From NCBI GenBank assembly GCA_964568285.1, contig CAZMPT010000001.1, positions 1 through 34,968 on the forward strand: a stretch of 34,968 bases of DNA, in the 5' to 3' direction. The notes under the pieces are model-generated. The model saw nothing but the letters and a program-made list of their open reading frames with translations, was not told the origin of the DNA and made no database searches. The position numbers were made by a program, and so were the translations under genes. This stretch comes from an uncultured archaeon. GTDB lineage: Archaea; Thermoplasmatota; Poseidoniia; MGIII; CG-Epi1. Of this stretch, positions 8,910 to 34,069 are shown piece after piece (within the stretch, counting starts at the first letter, position 1; each line of letters starts with the position of its first letter).

Positions 8910-8919
8910 TGTTATTTAA
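8910..8919 (-). promoter_or_regulatory. TATA-like promoter element, variant TTAAATAACA
   Basis: 20 nt to ATG 8890. Contains the TAA stop of gene 8916..9515. Confidence 0.6.
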
Positions 8920-9515
8920 GGTTGTGGTCGCATAATCCACTCGGTTATTGTTTCAATAATTTCACTGGCTGCGTGAGGCACATCTTCCAGTTTAAGATTG
9001 TGGAAAGTTAGATTAAATCCTTCCATGCCATCAAGGTCTGTTTCGGAAATCTCGTTCCTATTTTCCCAATGGGTTGCCCATCCATCTCCATACGCCTTTT
9101 CCAGTCGGCGTTTTTGTTCTTCTTCATCAACGGTTAATCGGATTGTGAACCATCCATCATCTTTTAGAGCCGTTAATTCATTTTGAAATCTCATATCATC
9201 ACAGATAACCATTTCGCAATTGGTGGTATCGTTTAGACCCTGAACTTGGTTGAGTAGTAAATCTACCCATACCGTATTTCTAATTTGACGAAATTGCTGT
9301 CCAATTTTTTGTAGCAACTCTCTATCTTTTTTATCAGAGGGCATCAAGAAGTAATCATAGGCTACTCTTTTAACTGGCGTTGCTAGAGATACTTTGGTTG
9401 CATGACTCTCATTGGGACAGTGTTTCAATACTTGTTTTAGTAATTCATCCGCAAGCGTGGTTTTGCCTACACCCATCTTTCCGCTAATGGCTATTCCAAC
9501 CAAGTAATCACTCAT
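8916..9515 (-). CDS. P-loop deoxynucleoside-monophosphate kinase-like protein (T4 gp1 family)
   Basis: Walker A is GKMGVGKT. RELLQKIGQQFRQIRNTVWV and CDDMRFQNE resemble the RRLMQALGTD...YW and PDTRQDHE/DVRFPNE motifs of phage dNMP kinases. It is leaderless, with the ATG 20 nt from the exact promoter motif. Confidence 0.65.
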   Translation of the reverse strand: MSDYLVGIAISGKMGVGKTTLADELLKQVLKHCPNESHATKVSLATPVKRVAYDYFLMPSDKKDRELLQKIGQQFRQIRNTVWVDLLLNQVQGLNDTTNCEMVICDDMRFQNELTALKDDGWFTIRLTVDEEEQKRRLEKAYGDGWATHWENRNEISETDLDGMEGFNLTFHNLKLEDVPHAASEIIETITEWIMRPQP

Positions 9516-9534
9516 AGTATTTCATAGGGAGATG

Positions 9535-9544
9535 ACCTATTTAA
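9535..9544 (-). promoter_or_regulatory. Promoter element, exact TTAAATAGGT
   Basis: 20 nt to ATG 9515 (leaderless geometry). Confidence 0.75.
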
Positions 9545-9556
9545 GCATTTTAATTT

Positions 9557-10432
9557 TCACACATCGGGAGCAAAATTTGTCCAATTAATAATGTATGCGG
9601 TGCGAGGTCGAGTAATCATATCAGACCAATCAGATAGTCTAGTAAATGGAGTATAATCCCACCAAGGGCTGCTATCTTGTTGATTTTCACGACCATAAGG
9701 GTAAATATCCAATCCAATTAACGGCGTGTTAAGAGTTGATACATCTATGGATTCATCATCCATCCAGCGCAAGTAAGATTCATTAATGGCTGCTAATTTC
9801 CATATATTTTCTGCCAGTTGTTTAGCCGATTTCAGGTTTTTAAGTTCCCCCATATCGTTCCATTCAGTAGGGACCAGTTGAGACCTTCCATTCTCGTTTC
9901 TGATGCTACCACCCTCAATTACTTTAGTATTATTTGCCAAATCGGGCCATTCTAACGCATTAAGGTTGTTGCTATAAATTCCAGAAGGCATTCCTTGGAA
10001 ATTATTCCATTGTTCTCGGAGCATTAAATCAAGGTCTAATGCTCTTTTAATCCGGTTTCTATGTTTGGTAGCAAAATTTGGTTTCATATAGACTCCAATA
10101 TTCCAATTTCCTTTAGTCTTACTATTCCAATTAGGTTTCCACCACACCATTACTTTATTTTTGTAGATATAAAAGGGTTTTAATCTTTCTCTATATCCTG
10201 TCCATGCTCTAAATCTTCCATCCCGATAAAGTAAATTTATTCCTAATCGTTGTCCCTCATCATTTTTGAATTGAGAGATGTTTAATCCGTTATAATTAGC
10301 ACCAACGCCTCCTCTTTGTAATAGATTCTTTTTTGCAGGGTCTAACAGTAATTCTTCCCATTGATAGGTCACCCAGTCTTTCTTATTAATACGCTTGATT
10401 TCTCTTTCGTATCTTTCAAGAAAACTAGCCAT
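9557..10432 (-). CDS. Hypothetical Trp/Asn-rich protein (291 aa)
   Basis: Long ORF with only a degenerate promoter-like element 21 nt upstream. Confidence 0.65.
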   Translation of the reverse strand: MASFLERYEREIKRINKKDWVTYQWEELLLDPAKKNLLQRGGVGANYNGLNISQFKNDEGQRLGINLLYRDGRFRAWTGYRERLKPFYIYKNKVMVWWKPNWNSKTKGNWNIGVYMKPNFATKHRNRIKRALDLDLMLREQWNNFQGMPSGIYSNNLNALEWPDLANNTKVIEGGSIRNENGRSQLVPTEWNDMGELKNLKSAKQLAENIWKLAAINESYLRWMDDESIDVSTLNTPLIGLDIYPYGRENQQDSSPWWDYTPFTRLSDWSDMITRPRTAYIINWTNFAPDV

Positions 10433-10452
10433 GATAATAAGTAGGGGCTTCC

Positions 10453-10463: not shown

Positions 10464-10682
10464 TTATCTTTTTAACCAAGCACCGATTCCGATAGATACA
10501 ATAACTAGGGTTCCAATTCCGATAGCAATTACCGCAGGAGATAACTGCTTTTCTTCTTCGCTTCCTTCAGGTTGTTGAATATACATGATTTGTGGGGTCT
10601 GCTGCGCTAAAGAAGATTGCATTGAACTAATCATACTCCGCATTTTGGCCCAAGGTTTAGGGCCGGGAGGAGGTGGAGGCAT
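10464..10682 (-). CDS. Small membrane protein with a polyproline N-terminus
   Basis: Starts MPPPPPGPKPW and ends with the TM helix AVIAIGIGTLVIVSIGIGAWL. Leaderless spacing of 20 nt from motif 10702. Confidence 0.6.
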   Translation of the reverse strand: MPPPPPGPKPWAKMRSMISSMQSSLAQQTPQIMYIQQPEGSEEEKQLSPAVIAIGIGTLVIVSIGIGAWLKR

Positions 10683-10701: not shown

Positions 10702-10711
10702 TGTTATTTAA
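10702..10711 (-). promoter_or_regulatory. Promoter element, variant TTAAATAACA
   Basis: 20 nt to ATG 10682. Contains the TAA stop of the helicase gene. Confidence 0.65.
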
Positions 10712-12955: not shown

Positions 12956-12965
12956 ACCTATTTAA
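12956..12965 (-). promoter_or_regulatory. Promoter element, exact TTAAATAGGT
   Basis: 20 nt to the in-frame ATG 12936 of the helicase. Confidence 0.7.
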
Positions 12966-13002: not shown

Positions 13003-13779
13003 ATGCAGGTATTTTGGGGAGTTCGTAATATTCCACGATTTGATAAAAAAACGGATGGTGGAGACGATGGATGGTTCAGTAATGATAGCACCAATGCTGC
13101 TGGAGTCGCAGACGGCGTAGGTTCGTGGAGAAAAAAGGGTATTAAAAGTGGTAATTTTTCTCGTTCCATGATGTCTAAGACCAATAATCGTATTGAACAA
13201 GGTATGAATCCTTATGATGCTTTACAAAGTGCATTTTTAGATTGGGAAGATAAAACAGGTTATGGCTCTACTACCTTTTGTGTAGCCCAGATGCTTGAAG
13301 ATATTTTGTATGTAGCCCAATTAGGCGATAGTTGTATTTTAGTTCAAAGAAATGGAAGGGTCGTTTATCAATCAAATGAACAAGAACACTTGTTTAATGT
13401 CCCCTATCAATTAGGTTCAGGTAATGAATCATTAGAGGATTCTTGGAGGTATCAAATTTCCCTTTTGCCCGGAGATACCATCATTATTGCTTCCGATGGA
13501 TTGTTTAATAATTTATATCGTAGTAAAATTCTCTCTATTATCAATAGTTATCCTATGGAATCGGAAAATCCCAATGCTTTATCGCAACAAATTGCAGACC
13601 AATTAGCCGGAGAAGCATACGACCAATCTATGTCTAATAAATATTGGTCACCATTTGCCCAACGCTCTTACGAAATGGGAATTACAGAAGCCTTTGATGT
13701 GGCTCAATTAGGTGGAAAGCCTGATGATATTACAGTGGTGGTAGGGCGTGTTTTATCTAAAGATGTTTGGAGAGATTAA
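13003..13779 (+). CDS. PP2C-family Ser/Thr phosphatase, PTC7/SpoIIE-like
   Basis: Motifs: GVADGVGSW, GSTTFCVA, AQLGDSC, EQEHLFNVPYQLG, IIASDGLFNN, GGKPDDITVVV. Leaderless, 21 nt from the plus-oriented TATA at 12973. Confidence 0.9.
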   Translation: MQVFWGVRNIPRFDKKTDGGDDGWFSNDSTNAAGVADGVGSWRKKGIKSGNFSRSMMSKTNNRIEQGMNPYDALQSAFLDWEDKTGYGSTTFCVAQMLEDILYVAQLGDSCILVQRNGRVVYQSNEQEHLFNVPYQLGSGNESLEDSWRYQISLLPGDTIIIASDGLFNNLYRSKILSIINSYPMESENPNALSQQIADQLAGEAYDQSMSNKYWSPFAQRSYEMGITEAFDVAQLGGKPDDITVVVGRVLSKDVWRD

Positions 13780-13979: not shown

Positions 13980-14525
13980 GTGGGGGAATTGAATAAAAAG
14001 AAACTGCGGATGGACAAGAGGAGGAAATCTCGTAGCCAGACCTATCCTAAAACTTATTCTCTGCGCCAATTTCAGGACCTTGTTCTATCTTTTTTTGACC
14101 GAAGAATCAGGCATTATGCATTAAGCCATATTATAAATTATTGTGGTGTTTTAACATATGAACCCAAGGTAGTTCGTTTAATTCAACAGTATCCCACAGA
14201 ATATAGGAATTTATTTAATGATAGTTGGTGGAGAAGTCAGCACAATCCCGAAGAACTTGAAATGCGTAAGCATCCAACTCGTGGTCGGCAGTGGATAGGT
14301 AGTCGTTTAACGACAGAAAGAAATGACCTGATATTTAATGTGTTCCATCAGGAAGGAAGTATAAAACTATCCTCAAGTCCACAACTTTGTCGGTTGTGCT
14401 ACAATGATGTTCCTGCCTTTTTGACAGAAAAACAAGCGGGCTTCTGTGTAGAATGTTGGCGCAGGTATGCACACCCATATCTGAACGATGTTATAGCCTA
14501 TTCGCTTGATTCAAACCCTAATTGA
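13980..14525 (+). CDS. Basic protein with a C-terminal CxxC...CxxC zinc ribbon
   Basis: The zinc ribbon reads CRLCYNDVPAFLTEKQAGFCVECW and the N-terminus is Lys/Arg-rich. Start candidates are GTG 13980, TTG 13989 (after GGGGTGGGGG) and ATG 14010. Confidence 0.55.
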   Translation: MGELNKKKLRMDKRRKSRSQTYPKTYSLRQFQDLVLSFFDRRIRHYALSHIINYCGVLTYEPKVVRLIQQYPTEYRNLFNDSWWRSQHNPEELEMRKHPTRGRQWIGSRLTTERNDLIFNVFHQEGSIKLSSSPQLCRLCYNDVPAFLTEKQAGFCVECWRRYAHPYLNDVIAYSLDSNPN

Positions 14526-15613
14526 TTCATGGCTTCATCGGCGGTCATATCACCCTTCTCAACCGCTTCAGTTAGGACTCCAAATGGATAACATTCATCA
14601 CGGAAGTCGCAGTAGGCACATTCCCAATTACCGGCCCCATTCACATCTGACGCACCTGCTAATGGATTACGCTGAATCTTCGGCCAATTAGTCTTAGCAA
14701 TTTGGCCTCTTGCCCACATCTGTTCTAATACTTCTTCAGAATGTCTTAGGTTATATCCTCGTGCGGGTGGTTCTTCGGATTCTAATTCCAATTGCATCTC
14801 TACAAAATTACTAATGATGTCCTCCACAGTAAATTCTCCTACGGATGCATAAGGCTCATTGGTAGATGCCTCCTTCTCCATACAGAAAACTTGGTCGGAA
14901 ACAATTGGGTTGTCATCCAAATCAGTAACAATGACACGACCTGAATATCCATCTTCCAATCTAATTTTGAAAACCTTAGTCAATCCTGAATCAACAGCCA
15001 AATAATGTAGTTCGGCGTGGTCTATGGTTACTCCATAATAGTCCTCGTATGGCTTACGAATTGCCAAATAGACCGCCATTTGCATTACATATCCATGCTT
15101 GGGCTTTCCATTTCTAAACTCTTTGTTTCCCATAGCCTCTCTTGCACCATAGCCTCTAATGGTTTTGGTGTCCACAATAACTGCTTCCGTGCGGGAGATA
15201 GAAATAATGTTGCCCTCATCATCCAATTCAGCCTTTCTGATGATTTGGTCCACTTCACCAGAAATATGAACTCGGACATCTCCGCCATATCCTGTTAATT
15301 CAGTAATATCTTCTTTGATTTTGATGTTGCTATCAATTAGTAATCCTTGACGCTCAAAATGATGAGTCAATGACGCTTCCATAGCGTGTCCGGTTTCAAA
15401 GATAACAAATGAACGGTCATCAGGAGGGTTGGTGCGTGGTGCGCCTGTTTTACTATACCAGTTTTGACGATGGCACTTACCAATGTATTCAGGTTCTCCC
15501 CAATGGTTATTGCGAGTAACACCCGCACCTGTTGGGTTCAATCCGCCAAGTGATACTCGGAAGGGTCGCTTTTCCATGCTTCTAATTGCTGCTTTGATAT
15601 AATTAGGATTCAT
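14498..15613 (-). CDS. Cas4/RecB-family PD-(D/E)xK nuclease with a 4Fe-4S Cys motif
   Basis: Motifs: N-terminal GKCHRQNWY, ETGHAME, GEVDQI, IVDTKT (DxK), QMAVYL (QxxxY), and C-terminal CAYCDFRDEC (Cx2Cx5C). An unusually long insert of about 150 aa precedes the C-terminal Cys triad. Confidence 0.75.
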   Translation of the reverse strand: MNPNYIKAAIRSMEKRPFRVSLGGLNPTGAGVTRNNHWGEPEYIGKCHRQNWYSKTGAPRTNPPDDRSFVIFETGHAMEASLTHHFERQGLLIDSNIKIKEDITELTGYGGDVRVHISGEVDQIIRKAELDDEGNIISISRTEAVIVDTKTIRGYGAREAMGNKEFRNGKPKHGYVMQMAVYLAIRKPYEDYYGVTIDHAELHYLAVDSGLTKVFKIRLEDGYSGRVIVTDLDDNPIVSDQVFCMEKEASTNEPYASVGEFTVEDIISNFVEMQLELESEEPPARGYNLRHSEEVLEQMWARGQIAKTNWPKIQRNPLAGASDVNGAGNWECAYCDFRDECYPFGVLTEAVEKGDMTADEAMNQLGFESSE

Positions 15614-15666
15614 TTTCTCATCTCTTTATCTCCCATAAGGGGTTCGTAATAGTTGATTGATGTATT

Positions 15667-15676
15667 ACCTATTTAA
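15667..15676 (-). promoter_or_regulatory. Promoter element, exact TTAAATAGGT
   Basis: 54 nt to ATG 15613. The leader carries GGGAG/GAGATGAG. Confidence 0.65.
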
Positions 15677-15683
15677 GTATGTA

Positions 15684-16079
15684 TCAAAAAAGGTCGTCTT
15701 CAGGACTTTCTGAAGGTGGTTTCATACAAAATCCGATATTCATTGAAGGCTGCACATCCAGTATAGGTAATGTTTGGTTGATTATATCATCTATGTCTTC
15801 TAAGGTGTTTTGCATATGTTTAACCTCTCCATACCAAAACATATCCACCTGATAGTAATGTAAATCTTTCATCACTACATCTCGTTTTGATAATTGAAGC
15901 ATAAAGTTTGTTTTTACCATCTCTAAGAAATTATGGATAGGGTGTTTAGGGTCGCTTGGCTCTCTCTTCCAAAAAATCATACTAACTACGAATCCATCAG
16001 GAGGATTATCACCAAATCCAGCGATTGCTTCTTCCAGACTTACACTTTCAGGTTCTTGTGGCTCTTCCGTTTCAGACAT
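15684..16079 (-). CDS. Acidic hypothetical protein (131 aa)
   Basis: The SD AAGGAG lies 8 nt before the ATG. About 25 D/E versus 9 K/R. Confidence 0.6.
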   Translation of the reverse strand: MSETEEPQEPESVSLEEAIAGFGDNPPDGFVVSMIFWKREPSDPKHPIHNFLEMVKTNFMLQLSKRDVVMKDLHYYQVDMFWYGEVKHMQNTLEDIDDIINQTLPILDVQPSMNIGFCMKPPSESPEDDLF

Positions 16080-17611: not shown

Positions 17612-18058
17612 TCAATCCTCCAGATGCTCTCGGTATGCCGCAATAAATTCGTCAGCATAGTTCAGAACTGCGTTAATGAAGTCAGATTGTGACAAGTCAT
17701 CACTACGGTTGTTCTGTGAAAGGTAATTGACCGCATGATTACAGCCCATCCCATACACAATACGGGATTGTGTGTCCATGATACCTGCCTTCTGTCCAAT
17801 GTATAGGTTCTTACCATCTGGTGTCGTGAGTGTCACTTTGGCCTTTTCTTCACTTACAAAGCCGAATCCGACTCCACTTGGAAGGTTATCAGCCACCTTG
17901 AACTTACCTGCAAAACGGCCACGCAGGTCAATCATACCGATTTCACCACGAGGGTTGCTTACTTCATTTGGTCCACGCAAGTAGTATCGGAGGGTATCGC
18001 CCTTCTCATATACCTTTGCGTCATATCCTGCTTCACAATTTACTTCTATTTTTACCAT
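17612..18058 (-). CDS. Hypothetical protein (148 aa) with the strongest expression signals in the window
   Basis: An exact promoter motif lies 49 nt upstream, and the SD GGGAGGAG lies 9 nt before the ATG. Confidence 0.65.
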   Translation of the reverse strand: MVKIEVNCEAGYDAKVYEKGDTLRYYLRGPNEVSNPRGEIGMIDLRGRFAGKFKVADNLPSGVGFGFVSEEKAKVTLTTPDGKNLYIGQKAGIMDTQSRIVYGMGCNHAVNYLSQNNRSDDLSQSDFINAVLNYADEFIAAYREHLED

Positions 18059-18106
18059 GTTATCATTCTCCTCCCTATTGGGGTTGTAGTTAGTGATTGT
18101 GAGATG

Positions 18107-18116
18107 ACCTATTTAA
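18107..18116 (-). promoter_or_regulatory. Promoter element, exact TTAAATAGGT
   Basis: 49 nt to ATG 18058. The leader carries GGGAGGAG. Confidence 0.7.
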
Positions 18117-18147
18117 CCATTCACCTTTTTGAGAAAAACCCTTCAAT

Positions 18148-18157
18148 TTAAGTAGTA
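18148..18157 (+). promoter_or_regulatory. Promoter element, variant TTAAGTAGTA
   Basis: 20 nt to ATG 18177. Divergent from 18107-18116. Confidence 0.45.
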
Positions 18158-18176
18158 AAACCACTAATGTATGCGT

Positions 18177-18752
18177 ATGCAAGTGTATCAGATAGGTAGG
18201 CACATTATACAGTTGCATTATCCTACTCAACAAGACTTGTATGATGCGGGCAATAGATTCCATGTATTTTACGAACACCCTTTGCACAAAGGGACATTTC
18301 AAAAAGATGATGGCGATTGGTCCGGATACAATTTCCCACCAAGATTCTTTTATAGCCTTAACGAAGATATGACCGAAGTAGAACAAGAAGTGTATAATTT
18401 AGGTTTGCGTTATCCTAACAGTTATTTTATCATGACTTATCAAAACCCATCAGTAGATAGGACTTTAATACATGAAACCGCTCATGCACTGTATAAGATG
18501 GAACCTTCTTACAAGCAGGAAGTTGATTTAATTCTTAGAGATAAAAATTTAGATAATCTAAAAAGTATTTTACCGAAGTATGATAAATCTGTTATTATGG
18601 ATGAGATACAAGCATATCTCGTAGAATGGAAAAAAATCAGAACTAATTTGTTAAAGGGTGGCATAAATCCCGACTTATATTTACCATTACATATGGACAT
18701 GGAAAGAATTTACAATAAATATGCTGCTAATTTACGAAAAACCCGTATTTAG
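18177..18752 (+). CDS. Putative HExxH zinc metallopeptidase
   Basis: Contains LIHETAHALY. The ATG at 18177 is 20 nt from the TATA-like TTAAGTAGTA. The track ATG at 18171 is the alternative. Confidence 0.45.
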   Translation: MQVYQIGRHIIQLHYPTQQDLYDAGNRFHVFYEHPLHKGTFQKDDGDWSGYNFPPRFFYSLNEDMTEVEQEVYNLGLRYPNSYFIMTYQNPSVDRTLIHETAHALYKMEPSYKQEVDLILRDKNLDNLKSILPKYDKSVIMDEIQAYLVEWKKIRTNLLKGGINPDLYLPLHMDMERIYNKYAANLRKTRI

Positions 18753-19492: not shown

Positions 19493-19494
19493 CA
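19485..19494 (+). promoter_or_regulatory. Promoter element, variant TTAAATAACA
   Basis: 20 nt to ATG 19514. Contains the TAA stop of 19103..19492. Confidence 0.6.
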
Positions 19495-23727: not shown

Positions 23728-23737
23728 CCCTATTTAA
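23728..23737 (-). promoter_or_regulatory. Promoter element, variant TTAAATAGGG
   Basis: 32 nt to ATG 23696, with GGGGTG in the leader. Confidence 0.65.
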
Positions 23738-24816: not shown

Positions 24817-24826
24817 ACCTATTTAA
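24817..24826 (-). promoter_or_regulatory. Promoter element, exact TTAAATAGGT
   Basis: 31 nt to ATG 24786, with AGGTGA in the leader. Confidence 0.7.
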
Positions 24827-24843: not shown

Positions 24844-25005
24844 CTAACACCACAACCCGCAGCCCGTAGCAGTGGTTTCACCCCATACAATCATTACGAT
24901 AAAAAACAGGGTAAATCCTATGAATAACCTCTTCTTGTTGCGTTTGATGGCTGCCAACTGCTCTTCACGGCTGGGCATATCCGGGTCGTAAGTTCCCCAA
25001 CTCAT
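24844..25005 (-). CDS. Small single-pass membrane protein (53 aa), not in the ORF track
   Basis: Translates as MSWGTYDPDMPSREEQLAAIKRNKKRLFIGFTLFFIVMIVWGETTATGCGLWC. ATGA overlap with the upstream FTR-like gene. Confidence 0.55.
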   Translation of the reverse strand: MSWGTYDPDMPSREEQLAAIKRNKKRLFIGFTLFFIVMIVWGETTATGCGLWC

Positions 25006-25343
25006 GAGTTCTCCTCCACATATTCTTGACTACAAAAGATTCCACAATGACATACACCCTCATTGGGAATTTCTTCTTTCAGTGCTGGTTTGCATGGACA
25101 AACTCTATTATGTTGTGGGTCGGTATATGGTAATTTCGCTGCTGCTTTTTGCTCTTCTTTTGTTTCGCCAACCACGGTGAAGCAAGGACAATACCTTTTT
25201 CCGTGTTTAACTTGCATTTGTGTCAGCCCCATGATAATGTTTTCATTGATTTCATCATCTGGATTAGGTGAATATCCCATTTTATCCCACACCTTTCCCA
25301 CGAACTTGCGGGTTTTATCAATTTCGGCCAGTGGTAAGTTCAT
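25002..25343 (-). CDS. Ferredoxin:thioredoxin reductase catalytic (beta) subunit homolog
   Basis: Contains GYSPNPDDE...IIMGL...HGKRYCPCF...RVCPCKPALKEEIPNEGVCHCGIF, which fits the CPC...CPC...CHC signature of FTR-B. The ATG at 25343 is preceded by AAGGTGGGAT. The track start at 25388 is a TTG. Confidence 0.7.
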   Translation of the reverse strand: MNLPLAEIDKTRKFVGKVWDKMGYSPNPDDEINENIIMGLTQMQVKHGKRYCPCFTVVGETKEEQKAAAKLPYTDPQHNRVCPCKPALKEEIPNEGVCHCGIFCSQEYVEENS

Positions 25344-25377
25344 TGTATCCCACCTTATCTTCTTGGAATATAAATCT

Positions 25378-25794
25378 TCACCAGTCAATGGTGCGTTTCA
25401 CATCCATACCATAATCATACGGAACACCCTCTAATCTGGTATCCTCTAAATCTTCCCCAATTACTATTAATCCATAATGAGGATATTCTTTATTGAAGGG
25501 ACCAACTTCTCCTTCTGCATAGGTGAGTTCAGCAATAAGGGCCTGTTCAATTTCATCAGTTCGGGTAAAACCGTAGCCCCAACGCATTCCCTTCCATTCC
25601 CACATGATTAAGTCCCTTTCTCTTCGGTCATAATAAGGGCCTTCATAGTGAGTATATTCAAATCCTTTAGGGTTTTCAGCCCATTCTAAAATGTTTGCAG
25701 GGTTGCCACTTCCAGCGTATTCCTCAAATATTCCCTCAACTATGTCTTTATTTTCCATCTCTGTGATTAGCATAACATCGGAATAGTAGCCCAT
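25378..25794 (-). CDS. Hypothetical protein (138 aa)
   Basis: The SD GAGGGAT lies 4 nt before the ATG. Confidence 0.6.
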   Translation of the reverse strand: MGYYSDVMLITEMENKDIVEGIFEEYAGSGNPANILEWAENPKGFEYTHYEGPYYDRRERDLIMWEWKGMRWGYGFTRTDEIEQALIAELTYAEGEVGPFNKEYPHYGLIVIGEDLEDTRLEGVPYDYGMDVKRTIDW

Positions 25795-25977: not shown

Positions 25978-26610
25978 TTAACTCCACTCCCTCTGATGTT
26001 CTTCTGAAAATCCACCTTGTTCGCACGGGTCTTTCATAGACACATATACTGACTTTCCAATGCCTAAATTTTCTGACCAATTATCAATCCCTTCGGCTAA
26101 ATCTCCTAAGAACATTGATAGCATATCTTTTAGAGCCTCTCTAATTTGTCCCATTTCAGCGATTTTGGATAATGCACGGCGATTGGTGCTGCGCTTGCGT
26201 AGTAAAATGTCCTCAAAAATTTGATTCCACCCTATTTCTTCCGCAGTTTGAAACTCAAAATCTGTGGCTACCACAGCCATTTGAAAATCTAATAGTAGTT
26301 CGCAGATAGATTCTTGCTCAATGATACCTTCCATCAACATCATATTCTGCGCCCATTCCATGACACCATCGGGCAAATTATCTTCGTGAGGTTCAATACA
26401 AAGCAGTTGGGCCTCTCCTTCCTCATTTTGACCTAGTAAATATGCGCCCGCAATAAAGACACTTTCCGTTGTATCTGGAATAAAACCCATAACAGGAACA
26501 ATAGTTGCATTATCCCAATTAGTAATGTTTCCTTCTTTAGCAGTTTCTCTAATTTGAGATTCCAGCCCACTTTCTAACATCTCATTGAATAATTTCTTCA
26601 TTTTTTCCAT
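25978..26610 (-). CDS. Acidic hypothetical protein (210 aa)
   Basis: The exact promoter motif lies 36 nt upstream. The SD AGGAGG lies 7 nt before the ATG. Confidence 0.65.
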   Translation of the reverse strand: MEKMKKLFNEMLESGLESQIRETAKEGNITNWDNATIVPVMGFIPDTTESVFIAGAYLLGQNEEGEAQLLCIEPHEDNLPDGVMEWAQNMMLMEGIIEQESICELLLDFQMAVVATDFEFQTAEEIGWNQIFEDILLRKRSTNRRALSKIAEMGQIREALKDMLSMFLGDLAEGIDNWSENLGIGKSVYVSMKDPCEQGGFSEEHQREWS

Positions 26611-26645: not shown

Positions 26646-26655
26646 ACCTATTTAA
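26646..26655 (-). promoter_or_regulatory. Promoter element, exact TTAAATAGGT
   Basis: 36 nt to ATG 26610, with AGGAGG in the leader. Confidence 0.7.
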
Positions 26656-26844: not shown

Positions 26845-27651
26845 TTAATTTACTATTTGAATATATCCGCTTCTGGCTGTAGGATTATACGCAGCCGAAC
26901 CTAATGTTAAAAGAAGATAATTATATTGTTCGTATCTTCTGCGTCCAGTCCCTCCTGCTCTCTGACGAGATTTTCTACTGGCTTTTCCATAAAATCTTGC
27001 ACTTATTTGAGTTCCGGGCCTAATTCTTGCTGCAAAATCTTCTGCTGCATCTCCATAAAGATTAACAAATCCCACAGTGCAGTTAGGGTTTTGAGGAAAA
27101 CCTACGGGAAATCGTAGGATAGCATATGTTATATCAAACGGGCCTGTTTCATTAAATCTATCTCGCACCCCACAAGCAGGACATTGATTACCATATCCCG
27201 CCGCAGATTGTCTTACACTCCGAACCCAATTACCGCCGCAGTTCTGACAATTAAGCCTCATTTCTTGCCCTTGTCCTTCTGATTGTTGAGGGCCATTAAC
27301 ATATCTAAAGTCGGAAGCATCTCTACCATCGGTCACTACATAAGTTAATTCAGGTGTTAATCCTCCAAAATGATTACGCCTTCTGTTCCAACCTTCTCTT
27401 TGACTTCTTTTATTGTTCCTAATTTCGGTCACCCATTCCGTTAGCGGTCCCCAATCATTACAAGAAGGATTTTCAAAGTCATATGGCGTTCCTGAATACG
27501 AGGCCAATGCTCTGGAAGGTCTAACAACTTCGGAAGCATCTCCAGTAATCCGATTAATACCTCGTCTCGCACTTTCTTGAATATAATTGATAACTACGGT
27601 GGACTCTAACATATTTTCTACCCTATCGTAGAGATTAGAAGATTCCTGCAT
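26845..27651 (-). CDS. Zn-ribbon protein, possibly an RPA DBD-C-like OB-fold ssDNA-binding protein
   Basis: CQNCGG-x(19)-CPACG is followed by ITYAILRF...TVGFVNLYGDAAEDFAARIRPG, which resembles the Zn-ribbon-in-OB layout of RPA. Leaderless, 20 nt from motif 27671. Confidence 0.4.
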   Translation of the reverse strand: MQESSNLYDRVENMLESTVVINYIQESARRGINRITGDASEVVRPSRALASYSGTPYDFENPSCNDWGPLTEWVTEIRNNKRSQREGWNRRRNHFGGLTPELTYVVTDGRDASDFRYVNGPQQSEGQGQEMRLNCQNCGGNWVRSVRQSAAGYGNQCPACGVRDRFNETGPFDITYAILRFPVGFPQNPNCTVGFVNLYGDAAEDFAARIRPGTQISARFYGKASRKSRQRAGGTGRRRYEQYNYLLLTLGSAAYNPTARSGYIQIVN

Positions 27652-27670: not shown

Positions 27671-27680
27671 TACTATTTAA
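27671..27680 (-). promoter_or_regulatory. Promoter element, variant TTAAATAGTA
   Basis: 20 nt to ATG 27651. Confidence 0.6.
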
Positions 27681-27686
27681 TTTTGA

Positions 27687-28283
27687 TTATAGCATCTTCC
27701 AATGTTGTCGGGCCATTCCAATTGATTTTACACCATCTACTACAATATTTTCATATTCATTTAGAAAATCTTCCCACAAGATATAGTAGGAATTATGCCC
27801 TATTTTAGCACAAGGATTCATTTTTAGGTTGCTACTATATCCAATAACGGCCATTCTCTTGAATTCTTGGATAGACATTGTATAGTATCCATTGTGCGGC
27901 TTGACATTTTTGAGCCATTCCTGATGAAAATCTACGCTGCTTTTGGATTTCTTGGCTTTAGTGGTTTTTTCTCCGTGCATTTCTTTAACTTCTTGTCGTA
28001 AGTCATGTCCACAATTTCGGCAACGCACGAAGACACCCTCTTCATCTTCCGCATACTCTAAGTCAAAACAAAAATCAGAGTATTGTAATGTCCATTTAGG
28101 TTTCGGTTCGCCCCATTTACTATCCCACTCTTCTAAAGTGGAACATTGAGGACAGAATGCTGTTGTAGGGACATAATTCTTATTACGCCCTCTCTGTTGC
28201 TCAAATCCTTGCGCTTCTTTTTCAGGAATATACCTCTCACTTCCGGAGATAGCCTCTCCTTGTTTAATGGTGTATTCCTCCAT
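27687..28283 (-). CDS. Zn-ribbon hypothetical protein (198 aa)
   Basis: Contains CPQCS...CRNCGH. Leaderless, 21 nt from motif 28304. Confidence 0.6.
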   Translation of the reverse strand: MEEYTIKQGEAISGSERYIPEKEAQGFEQQRGRNKNYVPTTAFCPQCSTLEEWDSKWGEPKPKWTLQYSDFCFDLEYAEDEEGVFVRCRNCGHDLRQEVKEMHGEKTTKAKKSKSSVDFHQEWLKNVKPHNGYYTMSIQEFKRMAVIGYSSNLKMNPCAKIGHNSYYILWEDFLNEYENIVVDGVKSIGMARQHWKML

Positions 28284-28303: not shown

Positions 28304-28313
28304 ACTTATTTAA
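28304..28313 (-). promoter_or_regulatory. Promoter element, variant TTAAATAAGT
   Basis: 21 nt to ATG 28283. Contains the TAA stop of 28310..28621. Confidence 0.65.
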
Positions 28314-28621
28314 GCACTACTGTTAAAACTTTCGGGGTATTTTTGTTGTAGGTCAGATAATTTTTGTTGTAGGTCGTCATACTTGGCCCTTGCTTTATCT
28401 TGAAGTTCCATAGCCTTTGCTTCTAAAGCGGTGAGTCCTGCACCCGATGGTGTAATCACCACATATCCCTTTTCAAGTTGGTGTAATTGATTAGGGTAAA
28501 TGACTTGCACCAATCTTGCGGGATTAATAACTGCATTTAGTCCATATTCATTGATTATTTCGGTGGCACAGGTCAAGGCCCTGTCTTCATTCTCAAACAC
28601 GGTAGCGTTCATTTGGGTCAT
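28310..28621 (-). CDS. Hypothetical protein (103 aa) with a C-terminal coiled coil
   Basis: Leaderless, 20 nt from the exact motif at 28641. Its TAA stop lies inside the next TATA box. Confidence 0.6.
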   Translation of the reverse strand: MTQMNATVFENEDRALTCATEIINEYGLNAVINPARLVQVIYPNQLHQLEKGYVVITPSGAGLTALEAKAMELQDKARAKYDDLQQKLSDLQQKYPESFNSSA

Positions 28622-28640: not shown

Positions 28641-28650
28641 ACCTATTTAA
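28641..28650 (-). promoter_or_regulatory. Promoter element, exact TTAAATAGGT
   Basis: 20 nt to ATG 28621. Contains the TAG stop of 28643..29188. Confidence 0.75.
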
Positions 28651-29188
28651 GATTGGCTTTTTTAACTCGAATCTTATCTCTACGAGCGGTTTTTCTTAGC
28701 GTATCCAACTTTTTGAGAGATTCTTTGAATGGAAGCCCTCTGATTTCAGGATTAAGGTAATAAATTTTGATTATCCCTTTATTGGTAGTTACTTCTTGGT
28801 TATGAATAACATTATAGGGACTCATACTTCTTATCCTCATAGAAACTTTGTTGGAAGATAGAGGACATCCGTGCAATTCACCATATCTCGTGATTTGTTT
28901 AGCAGTTAATCCTTCCGGAAAAACTCTCAAGATATTGATAAGGGCATAGTATTTGCGAATACCTTGTGCTGCGTGAGAGCAATCATGTCCACAAAATGAA
29001 TCTTTTCTTCTTCCATCGTGTCGATATTCATACTCTTTATGACACCAATTACACTTTCTTTGTAGCACGGGCCACTTTTTATTAGATACTTTAATATCTT
29101 TGGTTAAAAAACAGTATTCACTACAAAAAGACTCATACATACTATCTTTGAATAAGTGCCAGCAATTTGGATGCACACATTTCCTCAT
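28643..29188 (-). CDS. Tandem TRASH/FCS-type zinc-finger plus winged-helix DNA-binding protein (paralog of 23157..23696)
   Basis: Contains CVHPNC...FCSEYC and CNWCHKEY...FCGHDC, then LRVFPEGLTAKQI...wHTH and a basic tail. Leaderless, 21 nt from the exact motif at 29209. Confidence 0.65.
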   Translation of the reverse strand: MRKCVHPNCWHLFKDSMYESFCSEYCFLTKDIKVSNKKWPVLQRKCNWCHKEYEYRHDGRRKDSFCGHDCSHAAQGIRKYYALINILRVFPEGLTAKQITRYGELHGCPLSSNKVSMRIRSMSPYNVIHNQEVTTNKGIIKIYYLNPEIRGLPFKESLKKLDTLRKTARRDKIRVKKANLK

Positions 29189-29208: not shown

Positions 29209-29218
29209 ACCTATTTAA
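29209..29218 (-). promoter_or_regulatory. Promoter element, exact TTAAATAGGT
   Basis: 21 nt to ATG 29188. Confidence 0.75.
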
Positions 29219-29991: not shown

Positions 29992-30001
29992 TTGAAATAG
30001 T
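29992..30001 (+). promoter_or_regulatory. Promoter element, variant TTGAAATAGT
   Basis: 21 nt to ATG 30022. Divergent partner of 29960-29969. Confidence 0.55.
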
Positions 30002-30021
30002 CGTGGAGAGGAAATTATACT

Positions 30022-30843
30022 ATGGGTATAGAAGATGTCGCCAAGTTCGCCAAGTTTGGAAGGGGTGCTGGCGATGTAGGCACCGCTTTTATGAAAACCC
30101 AAAAAGGATTGGCGATGGTTGATGCTGCGGTTACGGCAGGGAAGGTTGGTGGTGATGCCGCATCTATGGCTAAATATGCATCTGAACAGGCTGCTATCAT
30201 CAATAAGGGTGTTTTAGAACGAATGGGTAGATTTACCAAACAGTTAGATAAGGCTTCATCCAATAAATTGATGGGAATGGGTAAAACCCTTAGCGAACAA
30301 GTTGGCACTTATTCGGCTCAATTGGCAAAAAAATTAGGTGACCCATCGGCGGCGGGTGAATTATCTAAGTTAATCAATCCCAAAGTAACCAGTATTTACA
30401 AGAAATCTATGAAGATGTCTAAGAAAAACTTGATAGGTAAGACTGATGAGGGTGCAGCACTAACTGGTAGAGCAGCAGATGATGTGGCAGAAGCCAATGC
30501 CACTTTTGGCTCTAGAATATTGAATGGTATTTGGCCTCCCGGAAGAGGTTCTGTGATTCTTGCTGGTATGGGTATCTTGATTTGGGCTGGACCTTTGGAT
30601 GCATTAGCAGGTCTAACTACTACCCTTGAACGATTCAATTTCCTCCCTGAAGGGACAACTAATGGTTTAATTGCATTTTGGGGTAAATTAAGAGGATTTA
30701 TTACGGCTGTATTGTGGGCTGCTATTCTCTTAGGGACATTCTGGGTGATGAATATGGTATTTGGTGCTGCAAAAACAGCAAAAGGTGTTGTAGATGCTGT
30801 TACCGACAATATAGTTCCAGATGCAGAGCCATCTGGAGCGTGA
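30022..30843 (+). CDS. Basic membrane protein (273 aa; helical N-domain plus 2-3 C-terminal TM helices)
   Basis: TM segments are SVILAGMGILIWAGPL and FITAVLWAAILLGTFWVMNMVFGAA. Leaderless, 21 nt after TTGAAATAGT (29992-30001). Confidence 0.7.
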   Translation: MGIEDVAKFAKFGRGAGDVGTAFMKTQKGLAMVDAAVTAGKVGGDAASMAKYASEQAAIINKGVLERMGRFTKQLDKASSNKLMGMGKTLSEQVGTYSAQLAKKLGDPSAAGELSKLINPKVTSIYKKSMKMSKKNLIGKTDEGAALTGRAADDVAEANATFGSRILNGIWPPGRGSVILAGMGILIWAGPLDALAGLTTTLERFNFLPEGTTNGLIAFWGKLRGFITAVLWAAILLGTFWVMNMVFGAAKTAKGVVDAVTDNIVPDAEPSGA

Positions 30844-31984
30844 TAACTTGTCAGATAGTTGGGACTTTGTAATTGCTCCAGAGGATTTGGAAACTACTAA
30901 TACTGCCGGTGCATTATTACAAATGCTCCCTGATGGCAGCATTGCCAATAAGTCTGGTCAATGGATTTCAACAAGAGGTTATGAGGTAGAAGATAATTGG
31001 TGCAGAACTGGTTTGGCAGCCAAGTTGGTGCATATTGATGATAAAGGAAAATCAAAGAATGTTGTAGTTACTGGAGATTCTGGAGAATATGATTTAACTG
31101 CTCCCGAAGGCAATAATAAGTTTAGAATATTTGTGAAAACAATTTCTGGGACTGATGAGGGTGATGAACCATGGATTGCTGGGGCTTGGGATTCAGATGC
31201 TTTATGTTCGGCACAAGATTTTACTGATATGGTCTGCCAAGAAAATGTGATTGGAGAATTCAGAGGTCGTTCTGATAGAGTGACTGTGAATATCAGACAA
31301 CTTAACATTCCTTATTTTGCAGCATTGGAAGCAAAAGTTCTTAGTGATTCAGAGAATCCGGAGCGTCTATTACGCAATCCAGAGTTGTTATATCAAAAAA
31401 CTAGGGAGTTAATAGACCCGAATATGGTTATGGCCCTACGAAGAAGTAAAACATGGGTTACAGACGGAAATGGTGATGGCACATGGGATTTTAATATACC
31501 AGACGATTGGCCTCCCGGCCCCATATTTATTACAGTAGAGTATGGATATGACGCAGCCAGTGAAAAAAGCACAGGCGAACTTGGGATGGAGATGTTAGAG
31601 AGGGCTGCAATACTAGTTACTATTGGGTTGGAAATAGCACTCGCAATTCTTTGTTGGCCCTGTGGTGTAGTTTATTTCTTGGCTGTTGATGTGTGGGAAA
31701 TTGCCCAACTGTTTGCTCAAGTTCCAATGGGGGGACAAAACAAATATGGTTGCACATTCCCCCCTATCACCCACGCAACTCCTCTGTTGGCCGCTTATCA
31801 GATAGACTATAAGGGTTCGGAAGCAAAAATCTATGAAGATATGGATGCTGGGGCGAAACAGTTTATGGCACAGTTGGTAAAAGATGAAGAAGTTAGGAAA
31901 CAAAATATGTTGCTATCTTTAGGAGTCGTTGGAGGTGCAACTTTATTAGTTGCAGGTTTTTGGTTAGCATTCGGAGGGGAATAA
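30821..31984 (+). CDS. Membrane protein (large N-terminal domain, C-terminal TM helices)
   Basis: TM segments are AAILVTIGLEIALAILCWPCGVVYFLAV and LLSLGVVGGATLLVAGFWLAF. The ATG at 30821 lacks an SD. The alternative is TTG 30848, 3 nt after GGAGCGTGAT. Confidence 0.65.
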   Translation: MQSHLERDNLSDSWDFVIAPEDLETTNTAGALLQMLPDGSIANKSGQWISTRGYEVEDNWCRTGLAAKLVHIDDKGKSKNVVVTGDSGEYDLTAPEGNNKFRIFVKTISGTDEGDEPWIAGAWDSDALCSAQDFTDMVCQENVIGEFRGRSDRVTVNIRQLNIPYFAALEAKVLSDSENPERLLRNPELLYQKTRELIDPNMVMALRRSKTWVTDGNGDGTWDFNIPDDWPPGPIFITVEYGYDAASEKSTGELGMEMLERAAILVTIGLEIALAILCWPCGVVYFLAVDVWEIAQLFAQVPMGGQNKYGCTFPPITHATPLLAAYQIDYKGSEAKIYEDMDAGAKQFMAQLVKDEEVRKQNMLLSLGVVGGATLLVAGFWLAFGGE

Positions 31985-31986
31985 AG

Positions 31987-32745
31987 ATGCCAGCAGAGAA
32001 TGAAAACTTAGAAGAACAACGACAAGAGAACTTTTTGAAAGCCTATAATGATGGAAAAAGCCATGTCGCTGGTGAAGCATATTGGGATGAACCTGATTTT
32101 ACTATTTTTGATGTATTAGATATGGAGGATGAACATGAATATCCATGGGTTTGTGACACATTTCACCAATATGCGATAGGCACTAGTCAGAAAAATGCAG
32201 ATGAGAATGATTTGAGATTATGGAAGAACGATATTATTTTTGGTTTTCAGGCTAGTGATACCAGTGGATGGTGGAGTGCGGATTTGGGAACATCAATGCA
32301 TTATAGCAGCGACCACAAAGTTCGTATTGATATTTATCACACAGATTCTAAGGGAAGGGTGGATAAAGTAATATCAAATTATGATTTAATGGGTGGGGAT
32401 GCAGATAATGGTATTAGATACCTTCCTTTTTATCCATCTAAAATAGGGAAATATACTGTCTGGATTAATAGAGTCCTATCAGCAGGAAGTTGTGGTGTTC
32501 CCATGGAAGGAACTAACAATTTTTGGAAATACGAGATAGAAATAAAACCTCCCGCAGAAGGTGATGAGATACCTGATGGTATTGATGTGGATTATGATGC
32601 ACTTAGGGAAGAATTTGAACAGTATCAATTAAATATGGCTTTAATGGGTGGGGAAACAGTATCTCCGATTACCCCTCTGGCACTATTAGGAACTGGTATA
32701 GTAGTGTCTTTAATAGCATATGGTATGTTTTCTTTATTCAAATAA
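31987..32745 (+). CDS. C-terminally anchored membrane protein (252 aa)
   Basis: The ATG at 31987 lies 6 nt after GGAGGGG. The track start at 31960 is a TTG/GTG-type extension. The C-terminal TM helix is LALLGTGIVVSLIAYGMFSLF. Confidence 0.65.
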   Translation: MPAENENLEEQRQENFLKAYNDGKSHVAGEAYWDEPDFTIFDVLDMEDEHEYPWVCDTFHQYAIGTSQKNADENDLRLWKNDIIFGFQASDTSGWWSADLGTSMHYSSDHKVRIDIYHTDSKGRVDKVISNYDLMGGDADNGIRYLPFYPSKIGKYTVWINRVLSAGSCGVPMEGTNNFWKYEIEIKPPAEGDEIPDGIDVDYDALREEFEQYQLNMALMGGETVSPITPLALLGTGIVVSLIAYGMFSLFK

Positions 32746-33627
32746 ATGAGTGTGTCGAGACCAAACTTCTTGCATTGAAGAAGTAGGAATAATTTTTCCA
32801 TCCCATCGCTCTGTTTCCCAACTAAACAAAATACTTGCCACTTCATATGGAGAAGAAAAATCGTTTTCATTTAATTTCTTTATATCTTCTTCAGTTAAAG
32901 GCCAAACGGGAAGTCCAGTCTTCCCATTCAAAGAATATGGACATCTAATTATGCCCTGACGATGTGCTGGAGCCAAATCATAACGATATAATGGCATTTT
33001 TGTTGCTAATATGGCTATTTTTTGAATCTGGAAACGATATTCTTTCCCTAAGTTACGCAGAGGGTCCCACTGCTCTACGGTTTTTAAATTAAATCCACAT
33101 AATTTCTCTGCTTCTTCGGCAAATAACCAGACATGGAATCCTTTGTTACCACTAAATACTATTTCGGGTGAGTATCCCAAATTTACAAGATAATTAAAAA
33201 TCTTGTAAGAATTTTCCCATGCCACTCCTAAATCTTGGTCATCTATGTCCCAAACCATATCTTTTCCTTGCCATATGTTATGGTAAGTTTCTATGCCAAT
33301 TATGTTAGGGTCTAAATAAGTTCTCCATAATTCGGCATATTTTTCTCTTTCTTCTTTATTCCAATCACTGGAACTTTGTTCTCGCAGTCTTGGTGGTAAC
33401 TCTACTGCGTCCCAATTAATATGATTCGTTCCAATATAAACAGAAGTTGGTCTTTTATCTGCATCTAAAATATTTAACCACTTTAATGTGTCTTCAGAGT
33501 GATTGATTCTACACTTGCGTATTCCAAATACACCAACTTTTTCATCATCTATGAGCCATTTTACTTCTCGATGGCGAGCCTGATGCCAAATAGCGGTGCC
33601 AATTTCCCGCCGACTATACCATTCCAT
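32734..33627 (-). CDS. Archaeo-eukaryotic primase (PriS-like AEP) catalytic subunit
   Basis: Motif I is MVWDIDDQD, motif II is SGNKGFHVWLF, and motif III is DLAPAHRQGIIRCPYSLNGKTGL. The N-terminal PTSVYIGTN is typical of PriS. The start was set to ATG 33627 (Met8), exactly 20 nt from motif 33647. Confidence 0.8.
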   Translation of the reverse strand: MEWYSRREIGTAIWHQARHREVKWLIDDEKVGVFGIRKCRINHSEDTLKWLNILDADKRPTSVYIGTNHINWDAVELPPRLREQSSSDWNKEEREKYAELWRTYLDPNIIGIETYHNIWQGKDMVWDIDDQDLGVAWENSYKIFNYLVNLGYSPEIVFSGNKGFHVWLFAEEAEKLCGFNLKTVEQWDPLRNLGKEYRFQIQKIAILATKMPLYRYDLAPAHRQGIIRCPYSLNGKTGLPVWPLTEEDIKKLNENDFSSPYEVASILFSWETERWDGKIIPTSSMQEVWSRHTHLFE

Positions 33628-33634
33628 ACTATAT

Positions 33635-34069
33635 TTACAGCCCATCACCTATTTCAATTGGTAGTAGTCTGAAGTTTATGGTCTGAAATTGTTCTGGTGA
33701 ATCTTCATTTAAGTGCCAAAACTCTGGTGAATTCTCAAGTTCTGTTATTGCATATACAGGAAACCCTATCTCGTCCAAATCCTTGTAGGAGTCATCTTCC
33801 AGTTCATCAATGAGGTTAGTTATTGCTTCACGAAGTAGCATCGAGTAGTGAATAAAAATAAATTCACTAGATTCCACACTATAACTATTCATTTCGCCAT
33901 CGCTGCCACGAAAATCATGCGCTATTTCTACGAGAAATTCTGCCAACAATGTGTTTTTGTAGTAAATCCAGAGGTTGGTGTATGCTAAATTTCCAAATTC
34001 ATCCTCATCCTCATCAAGAAAGGTGTGTTCAAACTTATATTTGAAGTTGAATATTTTAAATTCGGGCAA
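33635..34069 (-). CDS. Acidic hypothetical protein (144 aa), TTG start
   Basis: There is no in-frame ATG for about 60 codons. The TTG lies 5 nt after GGGTGAT, which contains the PolX TGA stop. Confidence 0.55.
   Translation of the reverse strand: MPEFKIFNFKYKFEHTFLDEDEDEFGNLAYTNLWIYYKNTLLAEFLVEIAHDFRGSDGEMNSYSVESSEFIFIHYSMLLREAITNLIDELEDDSYKDLDEIGFPVYAITELENSPEFWHLNEDSPEQFQTINFRLLPIEIGDGL
33647..33656 (-). promoter_or_regulatory. Promoter element, variant TGAAATAGGT, embedded in the 3' end of the upstream CDS
   Basis: 20 nt to ATG 33627 of the primase. It lies in the codons for IEIGDGL of 33635..34069. Confidence 0.6.

Follow-up and report, generated by a model that had tools for sequence, protein, structure and literature searches.

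A probable TATA-type promoter core repeated across a marine archaeal virus-like element that encodes its own TFB

How archaeal viruses divert the host RNA polymerase from host genes is an acknowledged open question, with only repressors and a single global inhibitor characterised to date (PMC5569661). The 34,968-nucleotide stretch of DNA analysed here (contig CAZMPT010000001.1; hereafter the window) belongs to a large, uncultured virus-like element of marine archaea, and it poses this question in a compact form. The same ten bases, TTAAATAGGT, stand in front of gene after gene, including the gene for the element's own transcription factor B (TFB, a TFIIB homologue). What are these ten bases, and does the TFB favour them? 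We give a probability of roughly 0.85 to the reading that TTAAATAGGT is the core of a strong archaeal promoter, dependent on TATA-binding protein (TBP) as well as on TFB, in a large marine archaeal virus-like element with its own TFB. A first inspection of the sequence (the original prediction) had already proposed an archaeal TATA-type promoter that feeds both leaderless and Shine-Dalgarno-led mRNAs. The promoter reading is well supported: it fits the orientation of the copies, their placement before start codons in a window that is 96% coding, the TATA-to-ATG geometry and the conservation in orthologues.

The ten-base motif and its position before genes

Nine exact copies of TTAAATAGGT are present in the window, all on the minus strand, so that the plus strand reads ACCTATTTAA, at the positions given by the original prediction (9535, 12956, 15667, 18107, 22396, 24817, 26646, 28641 and 29209). 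The expectation is 0.16 copies in dinucleotide-preserving shuffles (n = 100), none of which contained more than one, and 0.15–0.53 copies under Markov models of order 1–5. TTAAATAGGT is the top 10-mer of the window by both frequency and over-representation. Four more minus-strand copies with one mismatch, at 21072, 23728, 28304 and 33647, bring the number of strong sites to 13, from which a position weight matrix was built. When the whole window was scanned with this matrix, 15 sites scored at least 12 bits, where 1.5 were expected; the excess over shuffled sequence is small below about 9 bits, and only about 13–15 sites stand out from the background.

The motif can be divided into TTAAATA, a TATA box of the canonical box-A type, and GGT, which follows directly on the 3' side. 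GGT or a one-base variant of it is present after the TATA box in 13 of 13 strong sites, and exact GGT in 11. On the side of the B-recognition element (BRE), the exact copies are preceded by ATG[C/G] in five of nine cases and by ATGN in six, as originally described.

The position of the motif relative to genes was determined from a layout of 54 open reading frames (ORFs), which leaves 4.1% of the window intergenic. All 13 strong sites are co-oriented with the downstream gene and located within 60 nucleotides (nt) upstream of its start codon. Eight of them are fully intergenic (binomial P = 8e-9), and the remaining five overlap just the last codons of the upstream gene. Spacing is given here as the number of nucleotides between the motif and the start codon, so that the 20–21 nt of the original prediction correspond to 19–20 nt. 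The three spacing classes that it distinguished are real, as are the Shine-Dalgarno-type sequences at long spacing. Seven strong sites (9535, 12956, 21072, 28304, 28641, 29209 and 33647) are 19–20 nt from a leaderless ATG. Four (22396, 23728, 24817 and 26646) have a spacing of 30–35 nt, with a GGTGA/GGAGG-type sequence 4–7 nt before the ATG, and two (15667 and 18107) have a spacing of 48–53 nt, both with a Shine-Dalgarno-type sequence; taken together, the long-spacing sites all carry a GGAGG/GGTGA-type sequence 4–9 nt before the ATG. The distance histogram calculated from purely mechanical ORF starts also peaks at 19 nt (seven genes) and 20 nt (two), with no more than two genes at any other offset. 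With nineteen intervening bases, the centre of TTAAATA is followed 26 nt downstream by the A of the ATG; archaeal start sites canonically lie at this distance from the TATA box, and in the seven strong leaderless cases the distance is 26–27 nt. The mRNAs of these genes would therefore be leaderless.

The 13 strong sites are listed below; L001 and L007 are two of the related loci described in the next section.

9535-9544, minus strand: exact TTAAATAGGT, 19 nt to the leaderless ATG of an AAA_18 kinase-like gene (8916-9515); the orthologous site in L007 (20723) is also exact
12956-12965, minus strand: exact, promoter of the SF2 helicase gene, 19 nt from the start codon ATG 12936 (not 12954)
15667-15676, minus strand: exact, 53 nt to the ATG of gene 14498-15613 (weak PD-(D/E)XK nuclease match), degenerate Shine-Dalgarno sequence GAGATGA; exact in the L001 and L007 orthologues
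18107-18116, minus strand: exact, 48 nt to the ATG of gene 17612-18058, Shine-Dalgarno sequence GGGAGGAG
22396-22405, minus strand: exact, 32 nt to ATG 22363 of the element's TFB gene, Shine-Dalgarno sequence GGGTGA
24817-24826, minus strand: exact, 30 nt to the ATG of a SWIM zinc-finger gene (24544-24786; the JGI gene call of 80 residues agrees), Shine-Dalgarno sequence GGTGA
26646-26655, minus strand: exact, 35 nt to the ATG of gene 25978-26610, Shine-Dalgarno sequence GGAGG
28641-28650, minus strand: exact, 19 nt to the leaderless ATG of gene 28310-28621
29209-29218, minus strand: exact, 20 nt to the leaderless ATG of gene 28643-29188
21072-21081, minus strand: TGAAATAGGT, one mismatch, 19 nt to the ATG of a Holliday-junction-resolvase-like endonuclease gene (20486-21052); exact in the L001 orthologue
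23728-23737, minus strand: TTAAATAGGG, one mismatch, 31 nt to an in-frame ATG of gene 23157-23696, Shine-Dalgarno sequence GGGGTG
28304-28313, minus strand: TTAAATAAGT, one mismatch, 20 nt to the ATG of gene 27687-28283; the variant is kept in L001
33647-33656, minus strand: TGAAATAGGT, one mismatch, 19 nt to ATG 33627 of gene 32734-33627

Weaker variants with the leaderless spacing are present at six further positions.

27671-27680, minus strand: weaker variant TTAAATAGTA (5.8 bits), 19 nt to the ATG of gene 26845-27651
10702-10711, minus strand: variant TTAAATAACA, 19 nt to the ATG of gene 10464-10682
8910-8919, minus strand: variant TTAAATAACA, 19 nt to the second ATG (8890) of a probable operon, 8890-5028
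19485-19494, plus strand: variant TTAAATAACA, 19 nt to the ATG of gene 19514-20014
29993-30002, plus strand: variant TGAAATAGTC, 19 nt to the ATG of the gene cluster 30022-32745
18148-18157, plus strand: variant TTAAGTAGTA, 19 nt to the second ATG (18177) of gene 18171-18752

The sequence and 19-nt spacing of the site at 29993 are kept in the related loci L001 and L097, and a close variant is present in L096. The gene 10464-10682 on the minus strand, behind one of the TTAAATAACA variants, is a 72-residue ORF with the proline-rich N-terminus MPPPPPGPKP and no family match.

At least 13 transcription units of the window use the motif, and probably about 19 in all. The original figure of at least 24 genes was inflated: the weight matrix separates only about 13–15 sites, and besides the 13 strong ones about six weak variants are backed by their spacing and about five listed sites are unsupported. 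The latter, at 10453, 12973, 17088, 18826 and 29960, have no support apart from their AT-richness. Ten additional copies in the same orientation had been credited with one to four mismatches, which is correct for 21072, 23728, 28304 and 33647 (one), 27671 (two), 8910 and 10702 (three) and 10453 (four), and incorrect for 17088 (five) and 29960 (six). Among the five plus-strand sites, those at 18148 and 19485 (three mismatches) and 29992 (four) were retained, and those at 18826 (five) and 12973 (six) were not. Three positions had been given one base off and match better when shifted: 17087 (TGAAATACTA), 18827 (TGATATAGTT) and 29993 (TGAAATAGTC).

The motif corrects start codons and defines transcription units in a region where almost no protein is annotated. 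The four cases said to require an internal ATG are 12956, 33647, 8910 and 18148; only the first two are strong sites. At the helicase gene (12956), the upstream ATG (12954) is missing in L007 and out of frame in L001, and at 33647 an independent gene call of 297 residues agrees with the internal start; the other two sites are 19 nt from the second ATG.

Features of the untranslated regions accompany several copies. The leaders 18059-18106 and 15614-15666 on the minus strand share a block, TAC(A/G)AACCCC-N4-GGGAG, which is kept in L001 and L007. The 3-bp CCC/GGG hairpin (CCC-N4-GGG) predicted in the two long leaders abuts the Shine-Dalgarno sequence and is conserved, and it is no stabler than in shuffled sequence. 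Several motif copies come shortly after runs of five or six T that close the preceding gene on the transcribed (minus) strand (15677-15700, 18117-18140 and L001 at about 16100), which fits archaeal oligo-T termination and a delimitation of transcription units. Neither an Rfam match nor a tRNA was detected in searches for them.

The element's TFB and the conservation of its promoters

The TFB gene lies under an exact copy of the motif, and a reverse-oriented copy is located next to it.

21407-22363, minus strand: full-length TFB (TFIIB homologue) with zinc ribbon, B-reader/linker and two cyclin repeats; the independent gene call has 318 residues
22420-22429, plus strand: TTAAGTAGGT, one mismatch, separated by 14 nt from the TFB promoter; with the copy at 22396 it makes an inverted pair (ACCTATTTAA, 14 nt, TTAAGTAGGT)

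The ORF matches the Pfam family TFIIB (1e-41, two repeats) and Zn_Ribbon_TF, as well as the structure of Pyrococcus woesei TFBc (PDB: 1D3U, chain B) with 4.8e-53 over residues 118–309. In the alignment, Cys20, Cys23, Cys37 and Cys40 are invariant and the C-terminal helix-turn-helix VTEVTIRNRYKE is conserved. A reverse-oriented element similar to the copy at 22420 is also present upstream of the TFB promoter in L001, L100 and L103. The copy at 22420 may be an antisense or bidirectional promoter, a second factor-binding site or an autoregulatory site.

Homologues of the TFB that are 93–71% identical were found in marine metagenomes, on contigs syntenic with the window. In each related locus (12–21 kb) the exact 10-mer is present six to nine times and always on the strand of the genes; in loci L001–L010 this holds for 76 of 76 exact copies counted. 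Twelve orthologous promoters were compared among the window, L001 (TFB 83% identical) and L007 (75%). Identity is 98% over the ten motif positions, against 39% over the 25 upstream bases and 46% over the 19 downstream bases, a clear sign that the motif itself is under selection. Flank positions −5 to −1 are 65% identical.

More distant syntenic relatives were found on five viral contigs of the IMG/VR collection, L100–L104 (36–166 kb, four of them 123–166 kb). Their TFBs are 54–56% identical to that of the window, and the helicase, nuclease, phosphatase and other genes 25–57%. The promoter architecture is kept on the gene strand only in L100, L101 and L103, where a TATA variant is followed by GGTG, mostly exactly 19 nt, and ATG; L104 has no clear match to it. 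The consensus sequences are as follows.

L100 promoters: TTAAATAGGTG
L103 promoters: cTTTAAGTAGGTG
L101 promoters: TTTA[AT]GTA[AG]GTG

The comparison of these three shows that the TATA part drifts among lineages and that the GGT(G) step and the spacing stay. Within each lineage the promoter consensus changes in concert (TTAAATAGGT, TTAAGTAGGTG and TTATGTAGGTG). In relatives of the window, beyond its limits, the gene of the large subunit DP2 of the family D DNA polymerase (PolD) has its ATG 19 nt after an exact TTAAATAGGT.

Two 8-mers, CAAAGTTT in L101 and GAAAGTTT in L103, are strongly over-represented, mainly in coding sequence and on both strands; they were rejected as promoter words on account of this scatter. 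The scan of IMG/VR with an exact 14-mer gave single chance-level matches only, and pattern scans of genome and IMG/VR collections with the helicase as a single protein gave no matches.

In a crude neighbour-joining tree, the TFBs of the window and of its close and distant relatives form one long-branched clade apart from a tight Poseidoniales cluster. From this placement, the TFB appears to be an old core gene of the virus group rather than a recent capture. The viral clade is set apart from cellular TFBs by substitutions concentrated at residues 53–76 and 109–116, in the B-reader/B-linker region, among them the change of RKWQ to RRQH. TFBs of viruses in GenBank (Sulfolobales viruses YNP1 and YNP2, Halorubrum tailed viruses and Acidianus rod-shaped virus 3) are just 23–29% identical to the TFB of the element.

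The closest cellular TFBs in species-representative genomes belong to Poseidoniales/Thalassarchaeaceae, with 48–50% identity. In 26 Poseidoniales loci (444 kb) the exact 10-mer occurs five times, in each case in front of the cellular TFB gene, some 33 nt from its ATG. The sequence upstream of that gene, aaaaggggTTAAATAGGTtcgcaca..., resembles the viral TFB promoter TTAAATAGGTtgtcgcac. Other Poseidoniales TFB promoters carry TTAAATAACA, the variant found three times in the window, or TTAAATAAGA, TTTAAATAGGA or TTAAGAGTGT. The exact 10-mer at the Poseidoniales TFB gene indicates that the motif belongs natively to transcription in Poseidoniales and is not the element's alone. The analysis of k-mers upstream of ORFs in the Poseidoniales loci was dominated by Shine-Dalgarno-like words and uncertain starts and yielded no general host promoter. 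The element is most likely associated with Poseidoniales (Marine Group II), and the motif may help to tie an abundant, unclassified group of marine elements to these hosts. Both the element's own TFB and the Poseidoniales TFB promoter had been missed by the original prediction, whose underlying observation was otherwise real and, save for the count, mostly accurate.

Proposed reading of the promoter by viral and host factors

Archaeal viruses rely on host RNA polymerase that is recruited by TBP and TFB at TATA/BRE promoters (PMC5569661). TBP would most likely bind and bend the TATA box TTAAATA of the element, and TFB would contact the DNA on both sides of it, including the GGT, and recruit the host RNA polymerase. 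Transcription would start about 20 nt after the motif, at the A of the ATG in leaderless mRNAs or 11–34 nt upstream of a start codon led by a Shine-Dalgarno sequence. Acting with the TBP and RNA polymerase of the host, the viral TFB could preferentially drive near-consensus promoters, including its own, in a positive feedback that would channel transcription to the element.

That the viral TFB preferentially serves the motif promoters is a tentative proposal, with chances ranging from doubtful to a little short of even. Plausible grounds for it are the position of the TFB gene under the same promoter, the clade-specific changes in the B-reader and the drift of the consensus lineage by lineage. 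A stronger form of the proposal, which we consider doubtful, holds that a fast-evolving viral TFB, its B-reader/B-linker remodelled, acts selectively on a class of promoters that is private to the virus and spread over its genome, composed of TATA and GGT(G) with the fixed 19-nt leaderless geometry, and that this class was copied from, or converged on, the promoter of the host TFB gene. If true, a selective viral TFB would be the archaeal counterpart of takeover by phage sigma factors, with factor and promoter co-evolving in each lineage.

Several observations weigh against these readings. For the promoter itself, the start sites of transcription are placed by geometry alone, the weak variants are indistinguishable from background without the positional argument, and the BRE-side signal is weak (A at −4 in 75%, T at −3 and G at −2, at most 0.8 bit per position). 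The host assignment derives only from the best cellular TFB matches at 48–50% identity, the common promoter and the marine origin. As for dedicated specificity, the helix-turn-helix VTEVTIRNRYKE and the RGRSIEG loop, which we take to face the DNA as in TFIIB-family structures (1D3U, human TFIIB), are invariant between viral and cellular TFBs, and the pre-annotated genes of related loci include neither TBP nor a subunit of RNA polymerase. Furthermore, the motif is not exclusive to the element: a virus-specific element of the SIRV type would be absent from host promoters, and five Poseidoniales loci have TTAAATAGGT in front of their cellular TFB gene. The original notion of one dedicated initiation complex is accordingly a plausible hypothesis: it gains a candidate factor in the element's own TFB under the same promoter, but the DNA-contacting motifs of this TFB are identical to cellular ones and a host-lineage TFB gene uses the same 10-mer.

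A serious contender, which we place not far below even odds, is that the motif copies are ordinary strong promoters read wholly by host TBP and TFB and that the viral TFB is not specific. Selection for the strongest possible promoters in a compact viral genome would then account for their uniformity, and the viral TFB may add initiation-factor capacity, resist host shut-off or act on other targets. The identity of its DNA-contacting motifs with the cellular ones and the identical 10-mer at the Poseidoniales TFB gene agree with this explanation, as do the near-identical promoter cores that occur without a viral TFB in SIRV2 and SSV viruses (PMC11065993). It accounts less readily for a TFB that appears to have long been inherited vertically as a core gene, on a long branch in the crude tree, for the clade-specific changes of the B-reader and B-linker, which suggest functional specialisation, and for a consensus that shifts in concert in each lineage.

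The conservation of GGT/GGTG and ATG[C/G] could alternatively mark the operator of a virus-encoded repressor or activator, overlapping the core promoter and timing a gene class, like the Aca8-type regulators at early genes of Sulfolobus viruses. Perfect copies occur only on the strand of the TFB gene and plus-strand clusters have variants, which hints at gene classes, possibly temporal ones, and would suit an operator; so would the inverted pair of copies at the TFB promoter and the small zinc-finger (SWIM) and unannotated proteins encoded in the window. Nevertheless, we regard an operator as improbable: the conserved block is just 10–11 bp long, asymmetric and centred on the TATA box, dyad symmetry is missing at 12 of 13 sites, core-promoter geometry alone explains the fixed 19-nt distance, and no regulator was identified. 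A non-transcriptional repeat, for instance iterons of a replication origin, signals for packaging or what is left of a mobile repeat, has nothing but the repetition itself in its favour and is effectively refuted, because every copy is co-oriented with a gene at a quantised distance from its start codon, and the copies are unclustered and dispersed over more than 25 kb, one per transcription unit, with no repeats in their flanks beyond about 35 nt.

Archaeal viruses with uniform promoter cores have been described before (PMC11065993, PMC5569661), and the feature is very probably an archaeal viral TATA-type promoter set, a known kind and not a new kind of element, with the pairing of factor and promoter as a possible extension. 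The closest precedent is provided by the rudiviruses SIRV1 and SIRV2, where most promoters have a TATA box followed by a virus-specific GTC trinucleotide, a proposed cis element (Kessler et al. 2004, summarised in PMC5569661). The two systems have in common the TATA box with a conserved trinucleotide directly 3' in most promoters. They differ in the trinucleotide, which is GGT here (GGTG in relatives), and in the host lineage, which is marine and of Euryarchaeota type (Poseidoniales-like) here and Sulfolobales there. Further distinctions of the present element are the leaderless spacing fixed at 19–20 nt, its own TFB and the identity of the motif with the promoter of the host-lineage TFB gene. 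In SIRV2 and other Sulfolobales viruses, early genes share a near-identical TATA/BRE core that is also present at a few highly expressed host genes (PMC11065993). Like those early-gene sequences, the present motif can be used to re-annotate start codons and define a gene class; their block spans 30–100 bp and includes Aca8-type operators (PMC11065993), whereas that of the element is about 10–14 bp long and has no dyad.

A TFB homologue is also encoded by magrovirus YSH_150918 (Aoguangviridae), which is associated with Poseidoniales (PMC10768690), and the element resembles it as an archaeal virus with a TFIIB-family gene and a Poseidoniales association. In the literature surveyed on virus-encoded TFBs, no link between a viral TFB and a promoter consensus was found. 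In bacteriophage T4, gp55 recognises the late promoter TATAAATA and exemplifies a phage-encoded initiation factor with matching uniform promoters. The likeness, in which the virus supplies the factor and its genes carry one short near-invariant element, holds only if the viral TFB is promoter-selective; gp55 is of the bacterial sigma type, whereas the factor here belongs to the archaeal TBP/TFB system and the host uses the same element.

The element offers a clean, sequence-defined system: a short, near-invariant promoter, a viral initiation factor under its control and the same promoter on a host-lineage TFB gene. All three parts could be produced recombinantly and tested with no culture of the host. 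The locus is a testable case of an archaeal virus that possibly redirects host transcription, and an entry point to the viral control of archaeal transcription in an uncultured marine system.

Genes and genome of the element

Besides the TFB, the recognised genes of the window encode the SF2 helicase, the AAA_18 kinase-like protein, the Holliday-junction-resolvase-like nuclease, the SWIM finger, a DUF3846 protein and a PolX fragment, together with the following two proteins.

13003-13779, plus strand: PP2C-type phosphatase (1.6e-10)
25002-25388, minus strand: ferredoxin-thioredoxin reductase catalytic beta chain (2.6e-26)

In the window, searches of PHROGs and Pfam and by tblastn gave no match to PolB or to a structural gene of phages or archaeal viruses; the analysis covered about 60 kb of the genome, and a capsid module may lie elsewhere. 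Megablast of 20 kb against a phage collection gave no match, ten large proteins had no family in PHROGs, and tblastn of the 1015-residue and 447-residue proteins against phages gave no match. A conserved 387-residue protein is a candidate for the capsid protein, and its AlphaFold2 model, with a mean predicted local distance difference test score (pLDDT) of 53.5, was too poor for a fold search. The assignment to a virus rather than a plasmid therefore follows from the listing of the distant relatives as viral contigs in IMG/VR. The element differs from known TFB-encoding viruses in that it has no detectable structural genes in common with the phage and archaeal-virus records searched. The features of Magrovirales (HK97-type capsid module, family B DNA polymerase replisome and a genome of about 65–100 kb) were not found in the window, and relatives of the element instead carry PolD DP2 and PolX, on contigs of up to 166 kb.

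Relatives of the window are found on contigs of up to 83–166 kb, such as ERZ25070185 ctg136413, ERZ23486254 scaffold_12 and WLWH01000022.1, which indicates a large genome of which the window is only part. In L007–L010, L097, L100, L101 and L103 (contigs of 55–166 kb) the TFB gene is mostly about 17–22 kb from one contig end, and about 11 kb in L100. This recurring distance suggests a genuine genome terminus, and hence a linear genome on that side.

Beyond the limits of the window, relatives carry PolX-SAP, LigD_N and PolD DP2. The PolD large subunit, with PolC_DP2 domains, is encoded at L125:1-3086 (minus strand, motif at L125:3088-3097) and at L124:3-1160 (motif at about 1180-1189). The DP2 of the relatives comprises 1161 residues and is cut by the locus end, and the G+C content is uniform (0.38–0.40) across the region. 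To our knowledge, PolD on a virus-like element would be unusual. In the window, 34076-34879 on the minus strand is a PolX gene (DNA polymerase beta palm/thumb). A 93%-identical relative, L096:13217-16856, encodes a 1019-residue PolX-SAP protein followed by a LigD_N phosphoesterase, and the pair looks like a repair or end-joining module beside the apparent genome end.

At the opposite side of the window (1-2407), the plus-strand ORFs 18-266 and 275-2407 belong to a single larger protein that extends past the start of the window and has homologues of 841–1166 residues. Its N-terminal part is rich in glycine, serine and proline, with GSGSG and PGPP repeats, and is reminiscent of fibre or surface proteins.

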